A stretch of 46,276 nt of DNA from a virus (lineage: Duplodnaviria; Heunggongvirae; Uroviricota; Caudoviricetes): IMG/VR virus record IMGVR_UViG_2623620505_000005, one strand, 5' to 3'. Shown one piece after another: positions 1,777 to 46,276 of this stretch. Numbering within the stretch: position 1 is the stretch's first letter; every line of letters begins with the position of its first letter. A program made the translations under genes and the position numbers. The notes under the pieces were generated by a model. The model saw nothing but the letters and a program-made list of their open reading frames with translations, did not search any database and was not told the origin of the DNA.

Positions 1777-3372
1777 TTATGGCTGAGACTCTGGTTTAGC
1801 AATCTCGTTTATAAATTTCTTAGCTACAACAGTCTCATACTTTCTATAATCATCAAGATATTGAACATCTATATGATTTTTGTAGCGAGCATTAAATTTA
1901 TTTGCAGCCCCTGTTTTATCATCTTTACGTTCATCCGTTGGTCTGAAAAATTTATGGTAGCGGCGGGGTGATACCCCCTCAAAATCACAAAATATTACTT
2001 TGGAAGATTCTTCGTTCTTTGTTATTGCATCATTATGCAGATCAAGAGCAAGGCTTTTATCAAATGGCTCTATATATACTACTTTTTTTATTCCAGATGC
2101 GACAATATGCCTTGCACAGTTGTGGCAGGGATAGGTTGTCGTAAAAAGAATTTTATCTTTAGTATCGCCGTTTTGTTTTCTAGCCATTGATGTAATGACG
2201 TCCATTTCAGCATGAATTGATCTGGAGTACTCCATTACACTTGATATTTTGCTGTCTTTGTAAATGCCTTCTGCAATATTATCTAATTTGTTTAGAAGTC
2301 GTGTTATATTAATATCGGCAACAGTTTGTCCTGCGGAAATACCTAATACACTTCTTACTTCGGTTGATAATATGCTTTTTATACGGTCTTTAATTTTTAG
2401 CTTGTTTGCATCATTATAACACTTACCACTTTTGTGAACGCATCGATGATCGTTATCAAAATCATCACTGCTATACAACCCGCCACCAGCTTTAGGTACG
2501 TCGTTCTTACCCACGGCAAGCAAATTCCCTTCATCATCAAACAGTGCAGCCCCTACTTGACGTGATAAACAAGCTGATTGTAATGATGTTGAAAAGGCAG
2601 CATACATACCTTTCTCGTTAAAAGTTGGTGTTAAACCATTTTTGCCATGAATAAGACCGAAAAACCGATCAATCTTCTTCTTTAATTCACTTTTTTGGCT
2701 GAAGTTATTTTTAATAAAAAAATCTGAATCAAGAATGGTTTCCCCGGTTCTTTGTCCATACGGATCAGAGGATTTATTATCAATATTGATAATTAAATGA
2801 AGGTCGTCCTTTGCCGATTCGTCAGCAATGAGATTCGGAATTCGGTAATCTAAATCGCGCAAAACTCCTAACAAATAGAAATTATGCTGATATATAACTC
2901 TGAATAACTCTATTTCTTCCGGCCTTTTGAATTGATCAATGATGAAGACAGTACCTTTATATTCATCATTATTATAATCAATATTCTTTTTCGCTGCTGC
3001 GATTGCTGCAATAGCAGCTTCTGCAAGCAACTCATTTTTTTCGTAATGTTTACGAAGTTTATTGGCAATATCCTGGAGTTTTAAATGTCTATTAACTTGT
3101 GTGCTTTCGGATACCTTCAGTGCTGCGGGCTCAAAATATAATGGGTCTTCCATAAGCGCACTTATGCGGATGTGTACAACATTATACCCCCATTCTTTGG
3201 ATATCTCTTCGATAATTTTGTTTATCGTTCTCATGCCACATCCAACATATCCACACAATCCAAGATAAATATCTTTTGATTGTCGTGAATTCACAATCTC
3301 AAGTGATGATGCCGATGTTGAGCCTTTTTTTTCATTCAGCTTTTGTGGAGTTTTTTTTGCTGCTTCAGCCAT
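1777..3372 (-). CDS. avcD: P-loop NTPase / deoxycytidylate-deaminase fusion protein, AvcD/DCD-like anti-phage dCTP deaminase
   Basis: 531 aa. C-terminal half has the zinc-deaminase signature (SACLSRQVGAAL ... HAEMDVI ... PCHNCARHIVASGIKKVVY); N-terminus has a glycine-rich P-loop-like segment (GLCGYVGCGMRT). Size and architecture match the AvcD/DCD family; AT-rich relative to the phage backbone. Confidence 0.7.
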   Translation of the reverse strand: MAEAAKKTPQKLNEKKGSTSASSLEIVNSRQSKDIYLGLCGYVGCGMRTINKIIEEISKEWGYNVVHIRISALMEDPLYFEPAALKVSESTQVNRHLKLQDIANKLRKHYEKNELLAEAAIAAIAAAKKNIDYNNDEYKGTVFIIDQFKRPEEIELFRVIYQHNFYLLGVLRDLDYRIPNLIADESAKDDLHLIINIDNKSSDPYGQRTGETILDSDFFIKNNFSQKSELKKKIDRFFGLIHGKNGLTPTFNEKGMYAAFSTSLQSACLSRQVGAALFDDEGNLLAVGKNDVPKAGGGLYSSDDFDNDHRCVHKSGKCYNDANKLKIKDRIKSILSTEVRSVLGISAGQTVADINITRLLNKLDNIAEGIYKDSKISSVMEYSRSIHAEMDVITSMARKQNGDTKDKILFTTTYPCHNCARHIVASGIKKVVYIEPFDKSLALDLHNDAITKNEESSKVIFCDFEGVSPRRYHKFFRPTDERKDDKTGAANKFNARYKNHIDVQYLDDYRKYETVVAKKFINEIAKPESQP

Positions 3373-6997: not shown

Positions 6998-7611
6998 TTT
7001 GTTGCTCCTCATCATATCGACCCTGCAAGGCCGATTAGTTTCTCCACAAAACAGAGAAGAACACCTGCGGTGGCAGCCGCCCGGATGGATTGGGTTATGA
7101 GCCCGTCGTCCGGTGATGCTCTTCTCTGTTTTGTAAAAAGAGCGGTACCAGCCGGAAGCAAGTGTACAAACTGGTACCGCCAAAGCAGTGGCTGTTGTGG
7201 TGACCGGTGCTGATCTCCGGCTTGCGGTTATTTCAGACTCTCACGGGCGTTTAATTGCCCCGCCGAACAGCTCTTTTCCGCAATAGCTGCAATGTCTTTC
7301 GCGCATCAGCCTGCGCATTCACCACAACGCTGAGAGCACTTAGCCAGTTACGGCACCACACTTTGTCGCGGTTCCATAAATGCCCTCATCGTTGCACCCT
7401 GGTCTCTTCCCAGGCGTCAAACCGAATCGCCACGCTGGTTAGGCGTCTTATCAGCATCATCATTGACTTGCACATTCCGGCTACCTGGTTTGTTTGCCCG
7501 AGCAAGGAGTGGATTGTCCCCTTTAACGTCACCAGACCGCTAACGACGCATGTGCCATACGCCGTGTTACAACCAAATTTTGTTAGTACCTTGTTTGTTG
7601 GTCTGGAAAGA

Positions 7612-7640
7612 AAGATAAAATGAAGTTGCGCATTATGCAA
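7612..7640 (-). promoter_or_regulatory. Candidate pL promoter (leftward), overlapping the OL operator
   Basis: On the minus strand: TTGCAT (-35), 17-nt spacer, TATCTT (-10); the -35 lies inside an operator repeat. Confidence 0.3.
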
Positions 7641-7664
7641 GTGTTTTTATTGCGAGATATGCAA
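7626..7664. promoter_or_regulatory. OL operator: two 15-bp dyad sites of the repressor motif TTGCG-N5-TGCAA
   Basis: TTGCGCATTATGCAA (7626-7640) and TTGCGAGATATGCAA (7650-7664), centres 24 bp apart; same motif as the sites between cI and cro. Confidence 0.5.
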
Positions 7665-7681
7665 TTTTGTGGGTAATGAAA

Positions 7682-7699
7682 AGCCACCTTCGGGTGGCT
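7682..7699 (-). terminator. Hairpin downstream of cI (weak terminator)
   Basis: AGCCACC-TTCG-GGTGGCT stem-loop 21 bp past the cI stop codon, followed on the minus strand by only UUUC. Confidence 0.35.
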
Positions 7700-7719
7700 A
7701 ATTGATGAGGAGGTAAGGG

Positions 7720-8412
7720 TTAATTGTGTCGCTTAAGGGTTTGTGACTGGCTGATTAAGACCTTTCCAAAGACCATAAACCGGTGTTCATTTTCGCTGGT
7801 AATTCCCCATTCACGGTAAATCTGGTTATCAGAAATCACCAGTAGTTTGTCAGGTATCATTTGCAGTCGTTTGACATAAATTTTATCATCAAAACCAAAT
7901 ACATAGATACCATCTCCATCAAACTGATTGATACTGACATCAACGAAGATGAGATCTCCTGGCTCAATGGTTGGACACATACTGTCCCCACGAACGTTGA
8001 TAACTTTAATGTGATTGGCTGGTCGTCCGCCAAACATCGATACAGCATTATCAGTTCGGTATTCAATGGCATGAATCACATCAATGACATCACCGCCCTG
8101 GATAAGGCCATTTCCCGCACTGGCACTGACATCCAGCATTTCAATACGGAATACATCCTTCACCTGCGCAACATCCTCACTAATACTGTTTTTACATACA
8201 GTATTACTTTTGAAGTCTGAGGTAAAGAGATCAGCAATATCAACACCTAAGCTCCTGGCAATATTACTCAGGGCTTGTTCAGTGAATTGTTTCTGCTTAC
8301 CTGTTTCCAGGCGTGAGATATTCGCCGCATCCACTCCTATTGCTTCAGCGAGATCGGCGATTTTCATGTTCTTCGCCTGGCGAAGTTGTCTGACTCGATT
8401 TCCTATGTTCAT
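7720..8412 (-). CDS. cI: CI-type prophage repressor (HTH plus S24 LexA-like autopeptidase domain)
   Basis: 230 aa; N-terminal HTH (KIADLAEAIGVDAANISRLETGK) and C-terminal S24 peptidase signature (GDSMCPTIEPGDLIFVD); divergent from a Cro-like gene; no Shine-Dalgarno, start 20 bp from the first operator. Confidence 0.9.
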   Translation of the reverse strand: MNIGNRVRQLRQAKNMKIADLAEAIGVDAANISRLETGKQKQFTEQALSNIARSLGVDIADLFTSDFKSNTVCKNSISEDVAQVKDVFRIEMLDVSASAGNGLIQGGDVIDVIHAIEYRTDNAVSMFGGRPANHIKVINVRGDSMCPTIEPGDLIFVDVSINQFDGDGIYVFGFDDKIYVKRLQMIPDKLLVISDNQIYREWGITSENEHRFMVFGKVLISQSQTLKRHN

Positions 8413-40888: not shown

Positions 40889-40899
40889 GTGGGGTGAAT

Positions 40900-43197
40900 A
40901 TGGCAGTAAAGATTTCAGGTGTACTGAAAGACGGCACAGGAAAACCGGTACAGAACTGCACAATCCAGCTGAAAGCAAAACGTAACAGTACCACGGTGGT
41001 GGTGAACACGCTGGCCTCAGAAAATCCGGATGAAGCCGGGCGTTACAGCATGGACGTTGAGTACGGTCAGTACAGCGTTATTCTGTTGGTGGAAGGATTC
41101 CCGCCGTCACATGCCGGGACCATCACCGTGTATGAAGATTCCCGACCCGGTACGCTGAATGATTTTCTCGGTGCCATGACGGAGGATGATGTCCGTCCGG
41201 AGGCACTGCGCCGTTTTGAACTGATGGTGGAAGAGGTGGCGCGTAACGCGTCCGCGGTGGCACAGAACACGGCAGCCGCGAAGAAGTCAGCCGGCGATGC
41301 CAGCACATCAGCCCGTGAGGCGGCAACCCATGCGACTGATGCTGCAGACTCAGCACGCGCAGCCAGCACGTCAGCCGGGCAGGCCGCGTCGTCGGCACAG
41401 GAAGCGTCTTCCGGTGCAGAAACGGCATCAGTAAAGGCCACTGAGGCATCAAAAAGTGCAGCCGCTGCAGAGTCCTCGAAAAGCGCGGCGGCCACCAGTG
41501 CTGTTGCCGCGAAAACGTCAGAAACGAATGCGGCAGCGTCACAACAATCAGCCGCCACCTCAGCATCCACCGCGACCGCGAAAGCGTCAGAAGCTGCCAC
41601 CTCAGCCCGTGAGGCGGAGGCCTCAAAAGAGGCAGCAAAATCATCAGAAACGAACGCATCATCAAGCGCCAGTGGTGCAGCCTCCTCGGCAACGGCGGCA
41701 GAAAATGCCGCGAAGGAGGCAAAAACATCCGAGATGAACGCCAGGTCTTCTGAAACGGCAGCAGCACAGAGCGCATCCGCTGCGGCGGGCTCTGAAAAAG
41801 CAGCTGCATCATTGGCCGGCGAGGCATCCGGTAAGGCGGAAGAGGCTGCAGGGAGCGCAGCGGTGGCAGCGCAGAGCAAAAGTTCTGCTGAGTCTGCAGC
41901 AACACGTGCAGAGAATGCGGCCAGACGGGCAGAGGAGATTGCATCTGCTGTGAGCCTGGAGGATGCCAGTACGACCACAAAGGGGGTTGTCAGGCTCAGT
42001 AACCGTACTGACAGTACTTCACAGACAGAGGCCGCCACATCCCTGGCAGTCAGTAACGTCATGAATGAGGTGAAGACAAAAGCGTCACTGGATAGTCCGG
42101 TCTTCACCGGTACCCCTATGACACCGACACCACCGGACGATGCTTCAGGTCTGGAAACAGTGAATGCGGCGTTTGTCCGCAAACTGCTTGCTGCTCTTGT
42201 GGGTTCATCTCCTGAAACCCTGGACACGCTGAACGAACTGGCGGAGGCGCTGGGTAATGACCCGGCGTTTTCCGTAACGATAATGAAGATGCTGGCCGGA
42301 AAACAGCCTTTAAATCCCGTTCTGACTGCGTTAGGCAGTCTTCCATCCGGTGAAGATGGGTTTCCCAGTTTTAGCGGTAACGGGCAGTGTTCTCTGGCTC
42401 CTGTTTCTGAAAAAGGGAAACAGCTGTTGTCACAATCCACAGCCGAAGAGATGTGTGACGTTCTGGGTATCAATGGAAATAGTGGAAACTCAGCAGCAGG
42501 CGGAAATTATGGGCTTCAGTCAGGCATTTATGACAGAACGCAGGGGCGGGCCGCTGTTGCAGGAAGTCTGGGATTCGGGCATATCTTCACAAAAGGTGAC
42601 GTTCTCAGCTTTTCGTCGAAGGAAGTGCTTCTTGACTGGATCTCAAATGCCACACCGGGGCGGTATACGGTCAGCGCTGACTGCGAAATTATACCGGAAG
42701 TACAGTTTACAGGTGTGATTGATTTATTTTTCGCTGATGAGATGCGGAATAACCTTACTGTCCCGCTGATGCTGAAGATGGCTGTTTTTTACGGGATGAA
42801 CGGTGAACTGTATCGGGCAACATACGATGCCATACATGGCCCTTCACTGAGTGAATGGGTGAAAATAAATATTGACCTGTATGATATTGCCAAAATCCTG
42901 AGCATGACCACAAACGATAATTATGGTGATCCGTATGCTGGAAGCATAACACTGGCAGCCTTTAATAGCCGTGGCAGCACTAAAACAGCTAGCGTCGTAC
43001 GAGGGCAATATTACCCGGGCTCCGTCCTTACTCCCGTGGTATTCAGTGTTCCGGAGGGGGCATTATCGTCGCCGAAGATTGGGCTTTCTGGTACAGAGAA
43101 GCACACATTGCCGGGTGTTTACCGTGCATTATCCGGAACCCCGGATTACACCGGAGAAGGTGAGTTTATTATTGCTGCTTTTATAAGGACGATGTGA
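40900..43197 (+). CDS. stf: Side tail fibre protein Stf (lambda-type N-terminus, different C-terminal receptor-binding region)
   Basis: Start at the ATG at 40900 (MAVKISGVLKDG, as in lambda Stf); central Ala/Ser-rich tract; the C-terminal ~300 aa do not match lambda Stf as I recall it. Confidence 0.8.
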   Translation: MAVKISGVLKDGTGKPVQNCTIQLKAKRNSTTVVVNTLASENPDEAGRYSMDVEYGQYSVILLVEGFPPSHAGTITVYEDSRPGTLNDFLGAMTEDDVRPEALRRFELMVEEVARNASAVAQNTAAAKKSAGDASTSAREAATHATDAADSARAASTSAGQAASSAQEASSGAETASVKATEASKSAAAAESSKSAAATSAVAAKTSETNAAASQQSAATSASTATAKASEAATSAREAEASKEAAKSSETNASSSASGAASSATAAENAAKEAKTSEMNARSSETAAAQSASAAAGSEKAAASLAGEASGKAEEAAGSAAVAAQSKSSAESAATRAENAARRAEEIASAVSLEDASTTTKGVVRLSNRTDSTSQTEAATSLAVSNVMNEVKTKASLDSPVFTGTPMTPTPPDDASGLETVNAAFVRKLLAALVGSSPETLDTLNELAEALGNDPAFSVTIMKMLAGKQPLNPVLTALGSLPSGEDGFPSFSGNGQCSLAPVSEKGKQLLSQSTAEEMCDVLGINGNSGNSAAGGNYGLQSGIYDRTQGRAAVAGSLGFGHIFTKGDVLSFSSKEVLLDWISNATPGRYTVSADCEIIPEVQFTGVIDLFFADEMRNNLTVPLMLKMAVFYGMNGELYRATYDAIHGPSLSEWVKINIDLYDIAKILSMTTNDNYGDPYAGSITLAAFNSRGSTKTASVVRGQYYPGSVLTPVVFSVPEGALSSPKIGLSGTEKHTLPGVYRALSGTPDYTGEGEFIIAAFIRTM

Positions 43198-43763
43198 TGA
43201 AAATAAAAAAAATCAGCGAACAAAGGTATCTTGAAACCGGAGATGTTGACTGCATGGTCGAGTTTTCAGGTATGGAAATGCCACTTCCATACACAGCTTC
43301 GGCAAATGATACAGCAGAAACTGGCCGGCAAATCTGGCAGGAACTGCAGAGTGGCAGATGGGGTGAAATCGCCCCGTTCACAGTCACGCCTGAAGTTATT
43401 GCCGCAGCCAGAGATGCCAAAAAGTGGGAAATCGAAGCCTGGCGCACAGAACAGGAAGCGCAGCCGTTCACATTCGAATGGAACGGACACACCTGGAATG
43501 GCGGCCCCGACTCGCTGGCCCGCCTTTACCCGGTGGTAATGGCTGCAGGGGCTGACTCAGGGCAGTGGGACGTTATGACATGGAGTGATGCTGATAATCA
43601 GCAGGTGAAACTGTCGATGACGGAACTGGAGGAGCTGGCTGCAGCTATGGCGCAGGCGCAGGTTGATCGCAATAATGAGATTTATCGTCATCAGCGTGAA
43701 ATGAAAGAGGAACTGAGCAATCTCCTGGATTTGAAGCAGGTTAGGGAGTTCAGTCCAGAATAA
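43194..43763 (+). CDS. Putative tail fibre assembly chaperone cognate to the Stf C-terminal module
   Basis: 189 aa; ATGA overlap with the stf stop (translational coupling); Trp-rich; no lambda Tfa signature. Confidence 0.45.
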   Translation: MMKIKKISEQRYLETGDVDCMVEFSGMEMPLPYTASANDTAETGRQIWQELQSGRWGEIAPFTVTPEVIAAARDAKKWEIEAWRTEQEAQPFTFEWNGHTWNGGPDSLARLYPVVMAAGADSGQWDVMTWSDADNQQVKLSMTELEELAAAMAQAQVDRNNEIYRHQREMKEELSNLLDLKQVREFSPE

Positions 43764-43856
43764 GAAAAAACGTAGTACATCGTATTCAAGAGGATCTATG
43801 CTGGCATCGTAGCTGTTTTTAAACAGTAAGTAGCCGTTGAAGGTCACAGGGGAAAA

Positions 43857-44219
43857 ATGCTCTTTGACTTGGCTTCCGGGGACGCACTATTTATCTCTGA
43901 ACCAGGCCCATTAGCGGAAAATGTCACCTGGTTGTCGCCGGAAGGGGAATATCAGAAGTGGAACGGTACAGCCTGGGTGAAAGATGCAGAAGCAGAAAAA
44001 CTATTCCGGATCCGGGAGGCGGAAGAAACAAAAAACAGCCTGATGCAGGTAGCCAGTGAGCATATAGCGCCGCTTCAGGATGCTGTAGATCTGGAGATCG
44101 CAACGGAGGAAGAAAATTCGTTGCTGGAAGCCTGGAAAAAGTATCGGGTGTTGCTGAACCGTGTTGATACATCAACTGCACCTGATATTGAGTGGCCGGA
44201 AGAACCAGACACAATGTAA
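43857..44219 (+). CDS. tfa: Tail fibre assembly protein Tfa, lambda-type, N-terminally truncated remnant
   Basis: 120 aa corresponding to roughly residues 75-194 of lambda Tfa (GDALFISE ... [20 protein letters not shown]); the N-terminal ~74 residues are missing. Confidence 0.6.
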
Positions 44220-44220
44220 G

Positions 44221-44269
44221 CAAAAAAGAAAAACCGCAGACACGACGTATGCAGGACGTGCTGCGGTTT
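44221..44269 (-). terminator. Terminator for the leftward two-gene operon at the right end (also lies after tfa)
   Basis: 9-bp stem AAACCGCAG / CTGCGGTTT; on the minus strand the stem is followed by UUCUUUUUUG. Confidence 0.55.
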
Positions 44270-44384
44270 GGCTAGTAAACTTTTGATAGTGCGAGTATTG
44301 AATGATTTCCAGCCATTACTCATTTTACGCATTTCACGCGCAAGAGAAATTGAATTTTATTCCTCTGTCACCACATGACGGGGA

Positions 44385-45143
44385 TTAATATTCTGGATTT
44401 TTTATTTCTAAATCAGATAAAGCATTAATTCTTATTTTTTCTAAGGCTTTATCCATGGCCCCCTTGATTCTGTATCCATAATCATCCGGTTCTTCATATT
44501 CCTGTGGGGACGGATTTGTACCAATATTCTCAATTAATTCATTTAAAATAACAGTTACTTCTTTATTAAGAAGGACTGCTTTAGTTAACATCATCTCTGT
44601 TAATGCTGTGAAGGCTAGGCTAAGTTTCTGTTGTAGCTCTTTATTTTTTAATTTAAGGTCTTCATCGTTTAGTGCTTTATCACGGTCTTCGTGAGCCTGT
44701 TGTACTTCATCCCAAAACTGCTTTTCTTGTTCTTGATTAAAATATCCTTGATAACTATTGGCTACATATGTTGGCATCATGTGAATCTCAATAATTTCAA
44801 ATTCATTATCAGCCCATTTTTTTATACTAAGTAACTGAGTGTAAATGTACTCATACATATCGTACTTTTTTTGCCAGATTTGTTGAGAAATCCACAACTC
44901 AGAAGTAATCTTTTTTTCTATATCTTTGATAGTTGTTGTATTTAATGCTAACTGCTTTCTGAGTATTTCATAGTTAGCGTTGGTAGCAGAAATTTTTGCT
45001 TTTTCAGTTATAAAAGAAACAATAAAGTTCACTATGAGAGCTGCAATAATAATAGCGAAGCTCAACCCTAAAATCTCTGTGGTTGAGAAATTAGATGACT
45101 GTAATGCTTTGATAAGTTCAAAAAACTGTTTTTCTGTGAGCAT
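44385..45143 (-). CDS. Hypothetical membrane-anchored protein, downstream gene of a right-arm accessory operon
   Basis: 252 aa; one N-terminal hydrophobic helix (ILGLSFAIIIAALIVNFIVSFI) then a Lys/Glu-rich, probably coiled-coil region; AT-rich; no recognised domain. Confidence 0.6.
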   Translation of the reverse strand: MLTEKQFFELIKALQSSNFSTTEILGLSFAIIIAALIVNFIVSFITEKAKISATNANYEILRKQLALNTTTIKDIEKKITSELWISQQIWQKKYDMYEYIYTQLLSIKKWADNEFEIIEIHMMPTYVANSYQGYFNQEQEKQFWDEVQQAHEDRDKALNDEDLKLKNKELQQKLSLAFTALTEMMLTKAVLLNKEVTVILNELIENIGTNPSPQEYEEPDDYGYRIKGAMDKALEKIRINALSDLEIKNPEY

Positions 45144-45241
45144 GGTGCCTTACCAAAAATTAAGACTGTTATCTATATAAAAATGTTACCCAAGAGGGAT
45201 TGTAATGAAATAACAAACCGGCACATTGGCCGGTTTGAAGT

Positions 45242-46276
45242 TCAAGGGGGTGAGATTGTAGAGGCGTTACCTTGTTCTATCACACCAGACCTAATCTTAT
45301 AACTACCAAGGATGTTGACCGTTTTATTATTTTTCATCGCGTCAAAAATTAAGCCTATTTCATCAGGATCATTGATAAAACTGGTATCAACATAGATCGG
45401 GAATGAATCATCACCTGTTGGCTCATGGCAGCTTAACGTTAGCTTATCGGCTGAGCGTTTTATACTATCAATGACAACTTCCAATGTTTGCTGCTCTGAC
45501 TTAGCCTTTTCAATTGGGTTCTTGATGATTTCTTGAACCTGACCTTGCGAAAGCTCAATATTGCTGGCCCCGCGGATCGTCACTTTGTCTGCATCAGATG
45601 CACCTTTAAGAACTCCAGTGTATGCCTTAGCTGTGTGCTCTTGGATACCTTCGGCGCGCTCTATCGTATCAATACCTTCATGTGCTTTTATTGCAGACAG
45701 CATACCATCGCGTAGAATTGTCATCCGCTCGGATTCTGCTCGCTGTTTTGCTTCTTCCAGTTGTAACTCAATAGTTTTGGTTTCGACTTGTGTCTGATGA
45801 TCTAAGTAGGACGTACCGACCCATGCGCCGCCTAAAACTAAGACAGCAAACAGGAAACACATTGTTTTCTGTCTTGGGCTCATACCTTGTGTTACCTTCT
45901 CAAATGCGTTACCAAAGGAATCAATAAGTTCTTTAACTGAGGTGATAATTTCTGTGCAGCCAGGATTGATAGTAAAAACCAACTCTGCAGCTTCTCGATC
46001 CTCAGCAGTGAGCTTCTGTAAGTTAGAGGTTTTGTACTTGATTAGAGTAAAAACCTTGTACATCTCAGTTTGAAATTCACAGATACCCTGTGCCAAACTT
46101 GCAGGCAGAGTACCATTATACTTATCTTCATCACCAAAAAATTTGAAATCAATACTTTCTAAGAAGTTTAACTTCAAATTTTCAATGTGGATTTCTTCGC
46201 CTGAAATAACTCGTCCGAAAATATTTTCTATATCATCAATATCATTGATTTCATAGGCCTGAATTGCATCTTCCAT
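45242..46276 (-). CDS. Hypothetical protein with a central transmembrane segment, upstream gene of the right-arm accessory operon
   Basis: 344 aa; central hydrophobic helix (MCFLFAVLVLGGAWVGTSYL) followed by a coiled-coil-like region; the start codon is at the last base of the window, so the 5' end may be incomplete. Confidence 0.55.
   Translation of the reverse strand: MEDAIQAYEINDIDDIENIFGRVISGEEIHIENLKLNFLESIDFKFFGDEDKYNGTLPASLAQGICEFQTEMYKVFTLIKYKTSNLQKLTAEDREAAELVFTINPGCTEIITSVKELIDSFGNAFEKVTQGMSPRQKTMCFLFAVLVLGGAWVGTSYLDHQTQVETKTIELQLEEAKQRAESERMTILRDGMLSAIKAHEGIDTIERAEGIQEHTAKAYTGVLKGASDADKVTIRGASNIELSQGQVQEIIKNPIEKAKSEQQTLEVVIDSIKRSADKLTLSCHEPTGDDSFPIYVDTSFINDPDEIGLIFDAMKNNKTVNILGSYKIRSGVIEQGNASTISPP

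Follow-up and report, generated by a model that had tools for sequence, protein, structure and literature searches.

The right end of the prophage recorded as IMGVR_UViG_2623620505_000005 carries two minus-strand genes, here called gene A and gene B. The analyzed stretch of 46,276 nucleotides (the window) is 100% identical to the genome of Escherichia coli 1303 (NZ_CP009166.1) and corresponds to a complete lambdoid prophage, which is integrated between yjjG and prfC. The initial annotation of the window had described two co-oriented minus-strand genes of 344 and 252 aa, and both open reading frames (ORFs) were recovered at these positions. The ORF of gene A is complete and its ATG is the final codon of the window. 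As gene A aligned end to end with PHROG 6191 and with 26 homologues from many genera, this ATG is regarded as the true start, which settles the 5' end that was to be confirmed from flanking sequence. Beyond the right end of the window follow a 351 bp leader, the second copy of a direct repeat, a dinI-like gene and then prfC. The GC content was 0.37-0.41 at 44-46 kb versus 0.50-0.60 over 22-43 kb, in agreement with the earlier observation that the region is AT-rich relative to the tail genes, and the view that it represents acquired AT-rich cargo in the right-arm accessory region was supported. The coordinates of the features are given in Table 1, where labels such as L001 denote comparison loci that were fetched for the analysis; positions 10407-8149 of L001 correspond to positions 46627-44369 of the window.

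Table 1. Features of the gene A and gene B region. Positions refer to the window unless a comparison locus is named.
Feature	Position	Strand	Description
Gene A	45242-46276	minus	344 aa, WP_001555707.1 (RefSeq); PHROG 6191 member; predicted to cross the inner membrane once
Alpha/beta domain of A, about residues 1-135	45872-46276	minus	predicted cytoplasmic; most conserved family block at residues 45-110
Membrane helix of A, residues 138-158	45803-45865	minus	single; invariant C140 and G150
OB-fold beta-barrel of A, residues 259-342	45251-45502	minus	predicted periplasmic
Intrinsic terminator of A	45203-45237	minus	9-bp GC-rich stem at 45214-45237 and T-rich tail
Candidate promoter motif of B	45166-45191	minus	GTAAC.T.TT.ATATA.AG, ~45 nt upstream of the B ATG
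Gene B	44385-45143	minus	252 aa, WP_041124208.1 (RefSeq)
Membrane helix of B, residues ~24-45	45009-45074	minus	Kyte-Doolittle maximum 2.79 at residue 24
Cassette (leader, A, spacer, B; 2.26 kb), part in window	44369-46276	minus	continues to ~46627 (L001 10407)
Direct repeat, copy 1, ~100 bp	44231-44329		includes terminator hairpin; 3' region and terminator of dinI-like gene (backbone)
Direct repeat, copy 2, ~100 bp	L001 10401-10499, outside the window		directly after the dinI-like stop codon
Terminator	44222-44269	minus	hairpin 44231-44269 and U-run 44222-44230; tail UUUUUCUUUUUU; closes the B transcription unit

By sequence comparison, both genes are functional and under strong purifying selection. 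Between the E. coli and Enterobacter copies of the segment that carries them, the ratio of nonsynonymous to synonymous substitution rates (dN/dS) was 0.050 for A (dS 0.67) and 0.054 for B (dS 0.88), and the leader and spacer were only 72-78% identical. Disrupted ORFs in related genomes, to which the initial annotation had pointed as a sign against its proposal, do exist in a few copies: B is interrupted by a 1-bp deletion in strains ARS-C101 and EC6 and is partial in L032 and L077, while A is truncated in L062. Such copies could suggest that the two ORFs are spurious, or frames in decay, within AT-rich junk DNA. This reading is, however, effectively refuted by the dN/dS values of ~0.05 over dS 0.67-0.88, and intact full-length homologues at 30-95% identity in Enterobacterales, Aeromonas and Pasteurella, together with confident structure models, also argue against it. 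We therefore give it virtually no credence.

The co-occurrence of the two genes was surveyed by tblastn across all fetched loci and also in 5,426 complete E. coli genomes. Among the fetched loci, A was found without B at 49, about 45 of which contained enough downstream sequence to be informative, and B was found without A at 13. Both genes occurred together only where A was at least 94% identical to the window copy, and A copies at 93-95% identity were already without B (L036, L037). Both genes were present in 28 of the complete E. coli genomes, one of these being an error-rich assembly; a divergent A was the only one of the two in five genomes and a divergent B in seven, and these two sets shared no genome. 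A pair of ~90% identity in E. coli SCU-306 was dropped as evidence because the assembly is error-rich. The claim that the two genes form an operon or a pair was not supported by this survey, since the two families occur apart far more often than together, and the proposed check for the same pair across prophages located it in one shallow clade. Alignment of the two families with hhalign showed no profile similarity between A and B.

The hairpin between the two genes, reported at 45215-45236 and read as an element of the operon, is real, but belongs to gene A. It starts 4 nt past the A stop codon and has a folding energy of -14.6 kcal/mol (z -4.2). A GC-rich hairpin was present directly after the stop codon in all eight other A homologues examined, seven of which are A-only, and was followed by a T-run in seven of the eight; the hairpin sequence varies among these homologues and the design is constant. 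Because a hairpin follows all A homologues examined, the intergenic hairpin is assigned as A's own intrinsic terminator. Upstream of B, a motif of ~20 nt is common to the window, to the B-only loci L012 and L018/19 (Klebsiella, Aeromonas) and to L024, and it takes the form of an extended -10 element (TGnTATAAA-like) in the B-only loci. Judged by this conservation, the motif would be B's own promoter. The proximal 115 bp upstream of A are shared with A-only right-arm copies and hold an invariant TAnnAT, and A's promoter may be located in this proximal region. Gene A and gene B are probably two separate prophage cargo genes and not one operon.

The segment with both genes extends 351 bp beyond the window end and, along 2273 bp, matches part of an Enterobacter hormaechei prophage (L024 4528-6775) at 84% nucleotide identity. 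That prophage is built differently: it adjoins smpB and has myovirus-type tail fibres. As the block is common to two unlike prophage backbones, leader, A, spacer and B appear to move as one cassette, and the region is probably part of a mobile cassette with two unrelated single-gene modules in tandem. The cargo is bracketed by two copies of a direct repeat that are ~90% identical and spaced by 2390 bp. The repeat/terminator element belongs to the conserved backbone of HK97, mEp460, Stx phages and ~2,800 E. coli genomes; mEp460 has just one copy, located between the tail fibre gene stf and dinI, which represents the ancestral single-copy state. The terminator in copy 1 folds at -20 kcal/mol (z -4.2), and none of 200 shuffled sequences folded as well. 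The strong terminator that had been placed at 44221-44269 was thus found, with slightly different limits (Table 1), but as a conserved backbone element and not as the cargo's own. In repeat copy 2 (L001 10385-10445, about 46605-46665 in window numbering) the hairpin of -20 kcal/mol is kept and the U-run is lost, so that the cargo starts right after the stem of the dinI terminator. The insertion point of the cassette would be the terminator of the dinI-like gene, with the tail-fibre genes on one side and attR by prfC on the other. The dinI-like promoter contains two CTGT-N8-ACAG sites that resemble LexA boxes, and SOS-induced transcription from this gene might read into gene A; with no U-run in the dinI terminator copy that precedes A, such a link is conceivable.

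Gene A gave a full-length match to PHROG 6191, a family of unknown function (residues 4-342 on profile positions 4-332 of 338, E 2.2e-92). Its homologues are confined to Enterobacterales and Pasteurella and all are named 'hypothetical'. No Pfam, NCBIfam or PADLOC family was found for A and no Pfam domain among its homologues. The scan of PADLOC-DB 2.0 gave a best E value of ~0.02 (Csx16, LeoBC), with no defence model matched; the weak Csx16 and GspM matches of A each appeared in one of 27 family members and were rejected as chance. Profile searches of solved structures by sequence found nothing, and a Foldseek search of A against viral models returned uncharacterised proteins only. Across the Pfam, NCBIfam, PADLOC and PHROGs scans, no clear homology to a structural or housekeeping family was found, PHROG 6191 for A being the only match. 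No functional study turned up in a literature search that covered mEp332, PhiR12, the PHROG number and the accessions of A and B.

The AlphaFold model of A (predicted local distance difference test, pLDDT, 80.8; predicted template modelling score, pTM, 0.69) has four parts. Between the membrane helix and the OB fold lies a helical hairpin (residues 169-225) that is predicted to be periplasmic, and residues 259-342 form a five-stranded beta-barrel that can be superposed on known OB folds. The membrane helix is flanked by three lysine or arginine residues on its N side versus one on its C side, which would place the N-terminal domain in the cytoplasm and the OB fold in the periplasm. Conservation is equal on both sides of the membrane. 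A is predicted to consist of a cytoplasmic alpha/beta domain, one inner-membrane helix, and a periplasmic hairpin and OB fold. The initial annotation had seen one hydrophobic segment in each protein, and this was confirmed for A and B, as was their description as membrane-anchored members of families without an assigned function. The statement that they have no recognisable domains is correct at the sequence level (Pfam, NCBIfam, PADLOC), but A belongs to PHROG 6191 and its C-terminal OB fold is recognised by structure. The coiled-coil character that had been suggested does not describe A, which is not mainly coiled coil and has a globular alpha/beta domain and an OB fold.

The genomic contexts of A homologues point to a home position behind the phage repressor. 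Among 26 distinct contexts, the upstream neighbor on the same strand was a prophage repressor in 21 (20 with HTH and Peptidase_S24 domains, one with HTH_3), so that A directly follows cI in the same orientation there, which is not so in the window. The gaps between repressor and A measured 11-120 bp. These repressors are as little as 15% identical to one another, which indicates that A has been combined with many immunity types. In mEp332 and in the annotated region of PhiR12_2 the A homologue lies between cI and N, and other PhiR12 phages carry the same homologue. At one locus, the cI-A spacer opens with the sequence of lambda's own cI-rexA junction. The slot between cI and N is a known hotspot that houses RexAB and BstA (PMC8585504), and genes that shield a lysogen from other phages are classically placed right behind the repressor gene. 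The resident repressor gene of the window (7720-8412, minus strand) is followed by a slot of ~540 bp (7184-7719) with no convincing ORF, and the resident rex-type slot appears empty. The home of the A family would thus be the lambda rexAB slot, behind the CI repressor gene and in its orientation, with a terminator that belongs to A, and in those phages A would presumably be made in the lysogen along with the repressor. The window copy would have moved to the right arm, where it would rely on the conserved ~115-bp upstream region that traveled along with it.

Two further contexts of A homologues were observed. In another lambdoid prophage (L036 1838-7305), the 95%-identical A without B is situated downstream of the tail tip gene J, between genes for NleG-family and SopA-like type III effectors. 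In Pasteurella phage Pmp14 (L029 1882-3960), a reverse-transcriptase gene (Pfam RVT_1, annotated 'polymerase') that is preceded by a small regulator is followed after 84 bp by a 31%-identical A homologue; this locus may be a defence-type reverse-transcriptase module with the A-like membrane protein as partner.

The protein encoded by gene B has a conserved N-tail of 22 residues, one membrane helix and an all-helical bundle of ~200 residues. The charges that flank the helix are ambiguous (2 vs 3 lysine plus arginine). No match to B was found in 50,697 phage records, nor in Pfam, PHROGs, NCBIfam or PADLOC. A full-database profile search with B found 197 clusters (50% identity) at E <= 0.001; among the matches listed, the proteins are mostly ~200-260 aa, and the ten that were looked up by name were 'hypothetical' or unnamed. 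When 83 relatives of B were scanned, no consistent Pfam or PADLOC match was found, three unrelated PADLOC models being hit once each. In Klebsiella, Citrobacter and E. coli, close homologues (47-91% identity) are located at the ends of prophages, where often an SRAP gene comes next and UmuDC, DinI or RnlAB lie nearby. The Aeromonas homologue is a lone insertion between formate dehydrogenase genes, and distant members were found in a Serratia prophage remnant and in an integrative conjugative element (ICE). B may be described as a separate membrane-tethered helical-bundle protein with its own putative promoter, carried as lone cargo on prophage ends and an ICE. It is probably another accessory or defence gene; the arguments for its function are its carriage on mobile elements and its neighborhood. 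The SRAP (YedK-like) gene lies 240-320 bp downstream of B homologues in Klebsiella, Citrobacter and Enterobacter (L012-L017, L024, L073, L076) and is more conserved (83-87% identity) than B itself; it is absent from the window, from Aeromonas and from the other E. coli copies.

The repressor-linked position, the own terminator and the envelope-spanning design of A suggest a protein that is expressed in the lysogen and acts against superinfecting phages at the inner membrane. A would then be an exclusion protein of the cell envelope: its periplasmic domain would encounter the injection apparatus as it arrives, or the route of entry at the inner membrane, and its cytoplasmic domain would stabilise or relay the block. 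A role of the two genes in phage exclusion is plausible, especially for A. The suggestion of the initial annotation that they may be superinfection-exclusion or abortive-infection factors is reasonable as a guess, and for A it gains contextual support from the repressor neighbors in 21 of 26 contexts. The complete explanation, with two independent modules in a cassette, A as a lysogen-expressed envelope exclusion protein and B as a separate accessory gene, is in our judgment about an even call. A wider version is proposed more tentatively and we hold it to be rather doubtful. In it, A is a widespread, unrecognised single-protein prophage defence that alternates with rexAB and bstA behind the repressor, its periplasmic OB fold detecting or capturing injection machinery or DNA and its cytoplasmic domain executing or relaying the response; the cassette in the window would be a portable, repressor-independent form with its own promoter, stacked with B as a second, unrelated membrane-tethered defence.

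Several observations weigh against an exclusion function for A and against the independence of the two genes. Neither protein has homology to any characterised exclusion or defence protein in PADLOC, Pfam or NCBIfam. The window copy of A does not adjoin a repressor, and its expression in the lysogen is presumed from the family. In a strict sigma-70 scan, the upstream regions of A and B yielded no promoter, so that both promoter proposals rest on conservation. The predicted topology of A and B relies on the positive-inside rule, which is ambiguous for B, and the membrane helix of A was modelled with low confidence (pLDDT 37-53). The adjacency of A and B and a spacer of ~98 bp have been kept across dS ~0.7-0.9 and in two different prophage backbones, which speaks to some degree for a shared role. 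In the window copy the T-run behind A's hairpin is imperfect (GTTATTTCATT), and read-through from A into B is possible. The intactness of the genes, the purifying selection on them, their separability, the regulatory signals, the genomic contexts and the predicted folds have been shown here; topology, expression and any anti-phage function of A and B are features that we infer.

The main rival for the pair is that A and B form a functional two-component system, for example a membrane sensor with a membrane effector, co-transcribed from the leader upstream of A. Its one support is the transfer of the block as a whole: the genes are co-oriented and 98 bp apart, the order leader-A-spacer-B is intact at 84% identity between the E. 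coli lambdoid and the Enterobacter smpB-side prophage, and purifying selection is equally strong on both genes, to which the imperfect T-run of the intergenic terminator may be added. We consider such a system quite improbable, since ~45 informative loci hold A only and 13 hold B only versus one shallow clade with both, A copies at 93-95% identity are without B, and the families are without profile similarity to each other. Furthermore, the hairpin appears to be inherited from A-only contexts and the upstream motif of B from B-only contexts.

Two further explanations have to be weighed. A could be a Rex-type abortive-infection protein, in which one domain senses infection and the helix oligomerises, collapses the membrane potential and kills the cell. 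The helix is highly conserved, with its invariant C140 and G150, and holds a GGxxxG-type small-residue motif (residues 149-154, with G150 invariant); A shares its genomic slot with RexAB and BstA, both of which are abortive-infection systems, and a simple periplasmic block would not need the large conserved cytoplasmic domain. However, A has one membrane helix versus four in RexB and no similarity to RexA, and the equally conserved periplasmic OB domain fits a target on the envelope side more easily. A Rex-type protein is unlikely in our estimate, and entry exclusion is favored over it by a modest margin. Lysogenic-conversion genes unrelated to defence are likewise an unlikely explanation of A, B or both; they would act in envelope remodelling, stress tolerance, colonisation, or the control of induction or lysis timing. 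The close A copy among type III effectors (NleG, SopA-like) in another prophage is consistent with such a role. RexAB itself reportedly also modulates the transition from lysogeny to lysis (Thomason et al. 2021, cited in PMC12315714). B homologues often stand beside SOS-linked genes (SRAP, UmuD/C, DinI) at prophage ends, and the gene that the cassette follows is dinI-like, has two LexA-box-like sites and ends in a terminator copy without U-run. Against conversion genes, no signal peptide, enzyme motif or virulence-family match was found in A or B, a position linked to the repressor in more than 20 immunity types is what exclusion genes typically show, and relatives of B are also found near RnlAB and other defence genes.

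Elsewhere in the window, the tail-fibre region next to the cassette (40894-44219) appears rearranged. According to the RefSeq marking, stf is a C-terminally truncated pseudogene and tfa (43857-44219) is without its N-terminus. An alanine/serine-rich ORF of 767 aa (40894-43197) and a DUF4376 gene (43194-43763) are intact. A match to the Rfam family IS009 (RF02111) at 44020-44176 on the plus strand scored 173 bits, with a gathering score of 117, and falls within the 3' end of the truncated tail fibre assembly gene. At the opposite end of the prophage, a second patch of low GC (35-37%) directly after the integrase gene holds a gene that is annotated in RefSeq as 'anti-phage dCTP deaminase' (WP_041124189.1; window 1777-3372, minus strand; L089 3777-5372). 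The same prophage thus bears a recognised defence gene at another accessory site.

The families of A and B are uncharacterised, although elements of this kind, prophage cargo genes with a probable exclusion role, are familiar. Should A prove to be an exclusion or defence protein, it would add a new fold architecture to the small set of repressor-slot genes and would offer a tractable single-gene model for the sensing or blocking of infection by a lysogen at its inner membrane; phages that carry A (mEp332, PhiR12) have been isolated and sequenced. The locus would also show the route by which such a gene escapes from the repressor operon, acquires a promoter and spreads as a cassette, the spread amounting to recombination at a terminator element that is conserved. 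Were neither gene to affect phages, the two would be well-conserved orphan cargo genes, an ordinary result.

Several known systems were compared with A and B. The A homologues of mEp332 and PhiR12 were labelled 'T2SS GspM containing protein' by their depositors. A resembles GspM in its single-pass inner-membrane layout with a helix after the membrane segment; the identity was rejected, as neither the GspM/T2SSM profiles nor the fold gave support and the profile hit in one of 27 members was due to chance. The single-pass inner-membrane superinfection-exclusion proteins of the HK97 gp15 type are much smaller and have neither the conserved cytoplasmic domain nor the OB fold of A. Among the described exclusion proteins compared, the predicted architecture of A is without counterpart. 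SNIPE/PD-lambda-1, a nuclease bound to the membrane, cuts phage DNA during injection; it is a one-gene defence tethered by one membrane helix near the N-terminus, its short N-tail lying in the periplasm and its body in the cytoplasm (PMC13190303). B may share this layout with its N-terminal helix tether, but its body is a plain helical bundle with no Pfam or PADLOC match, and a designation of B as SNIPE was rejected as no Pfam domain was found in it.

The closest parallels in genome position are with RexAB and BstA. Homologues of A occupy the slot of lambda RexA/RexB, whose genes are co-transcribed with cI: they lie between cI and N, immediately behind cI and on its strand, and end in a terminator. 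Both systems involve a membrane protein. They differ in that A is one gene whereas RexAB are two, and in that A is not beside cI in the window. RexB has four helices, whereas A has one membrane helix and large domains on both sides. The hhalign comparison with lambda RexA gave probabilities of 0.1% for A and 3.6% for B, which indicates no relationship. BstA of the BTP1 prophage causes abortive infection and is encoded downstream of cI with its own rho-independent terminator; it is described as localising to sites of phage DNA replication inside the cell (PMC8585504). A differs from BstA in being membrane-spanning, with a predicted periplasmic OB fold, and in matching no Pfam family. Like BstA, it is a prophage cargo of one gene, with tight linkage of the family to the repressor locus and a terminator of its own.

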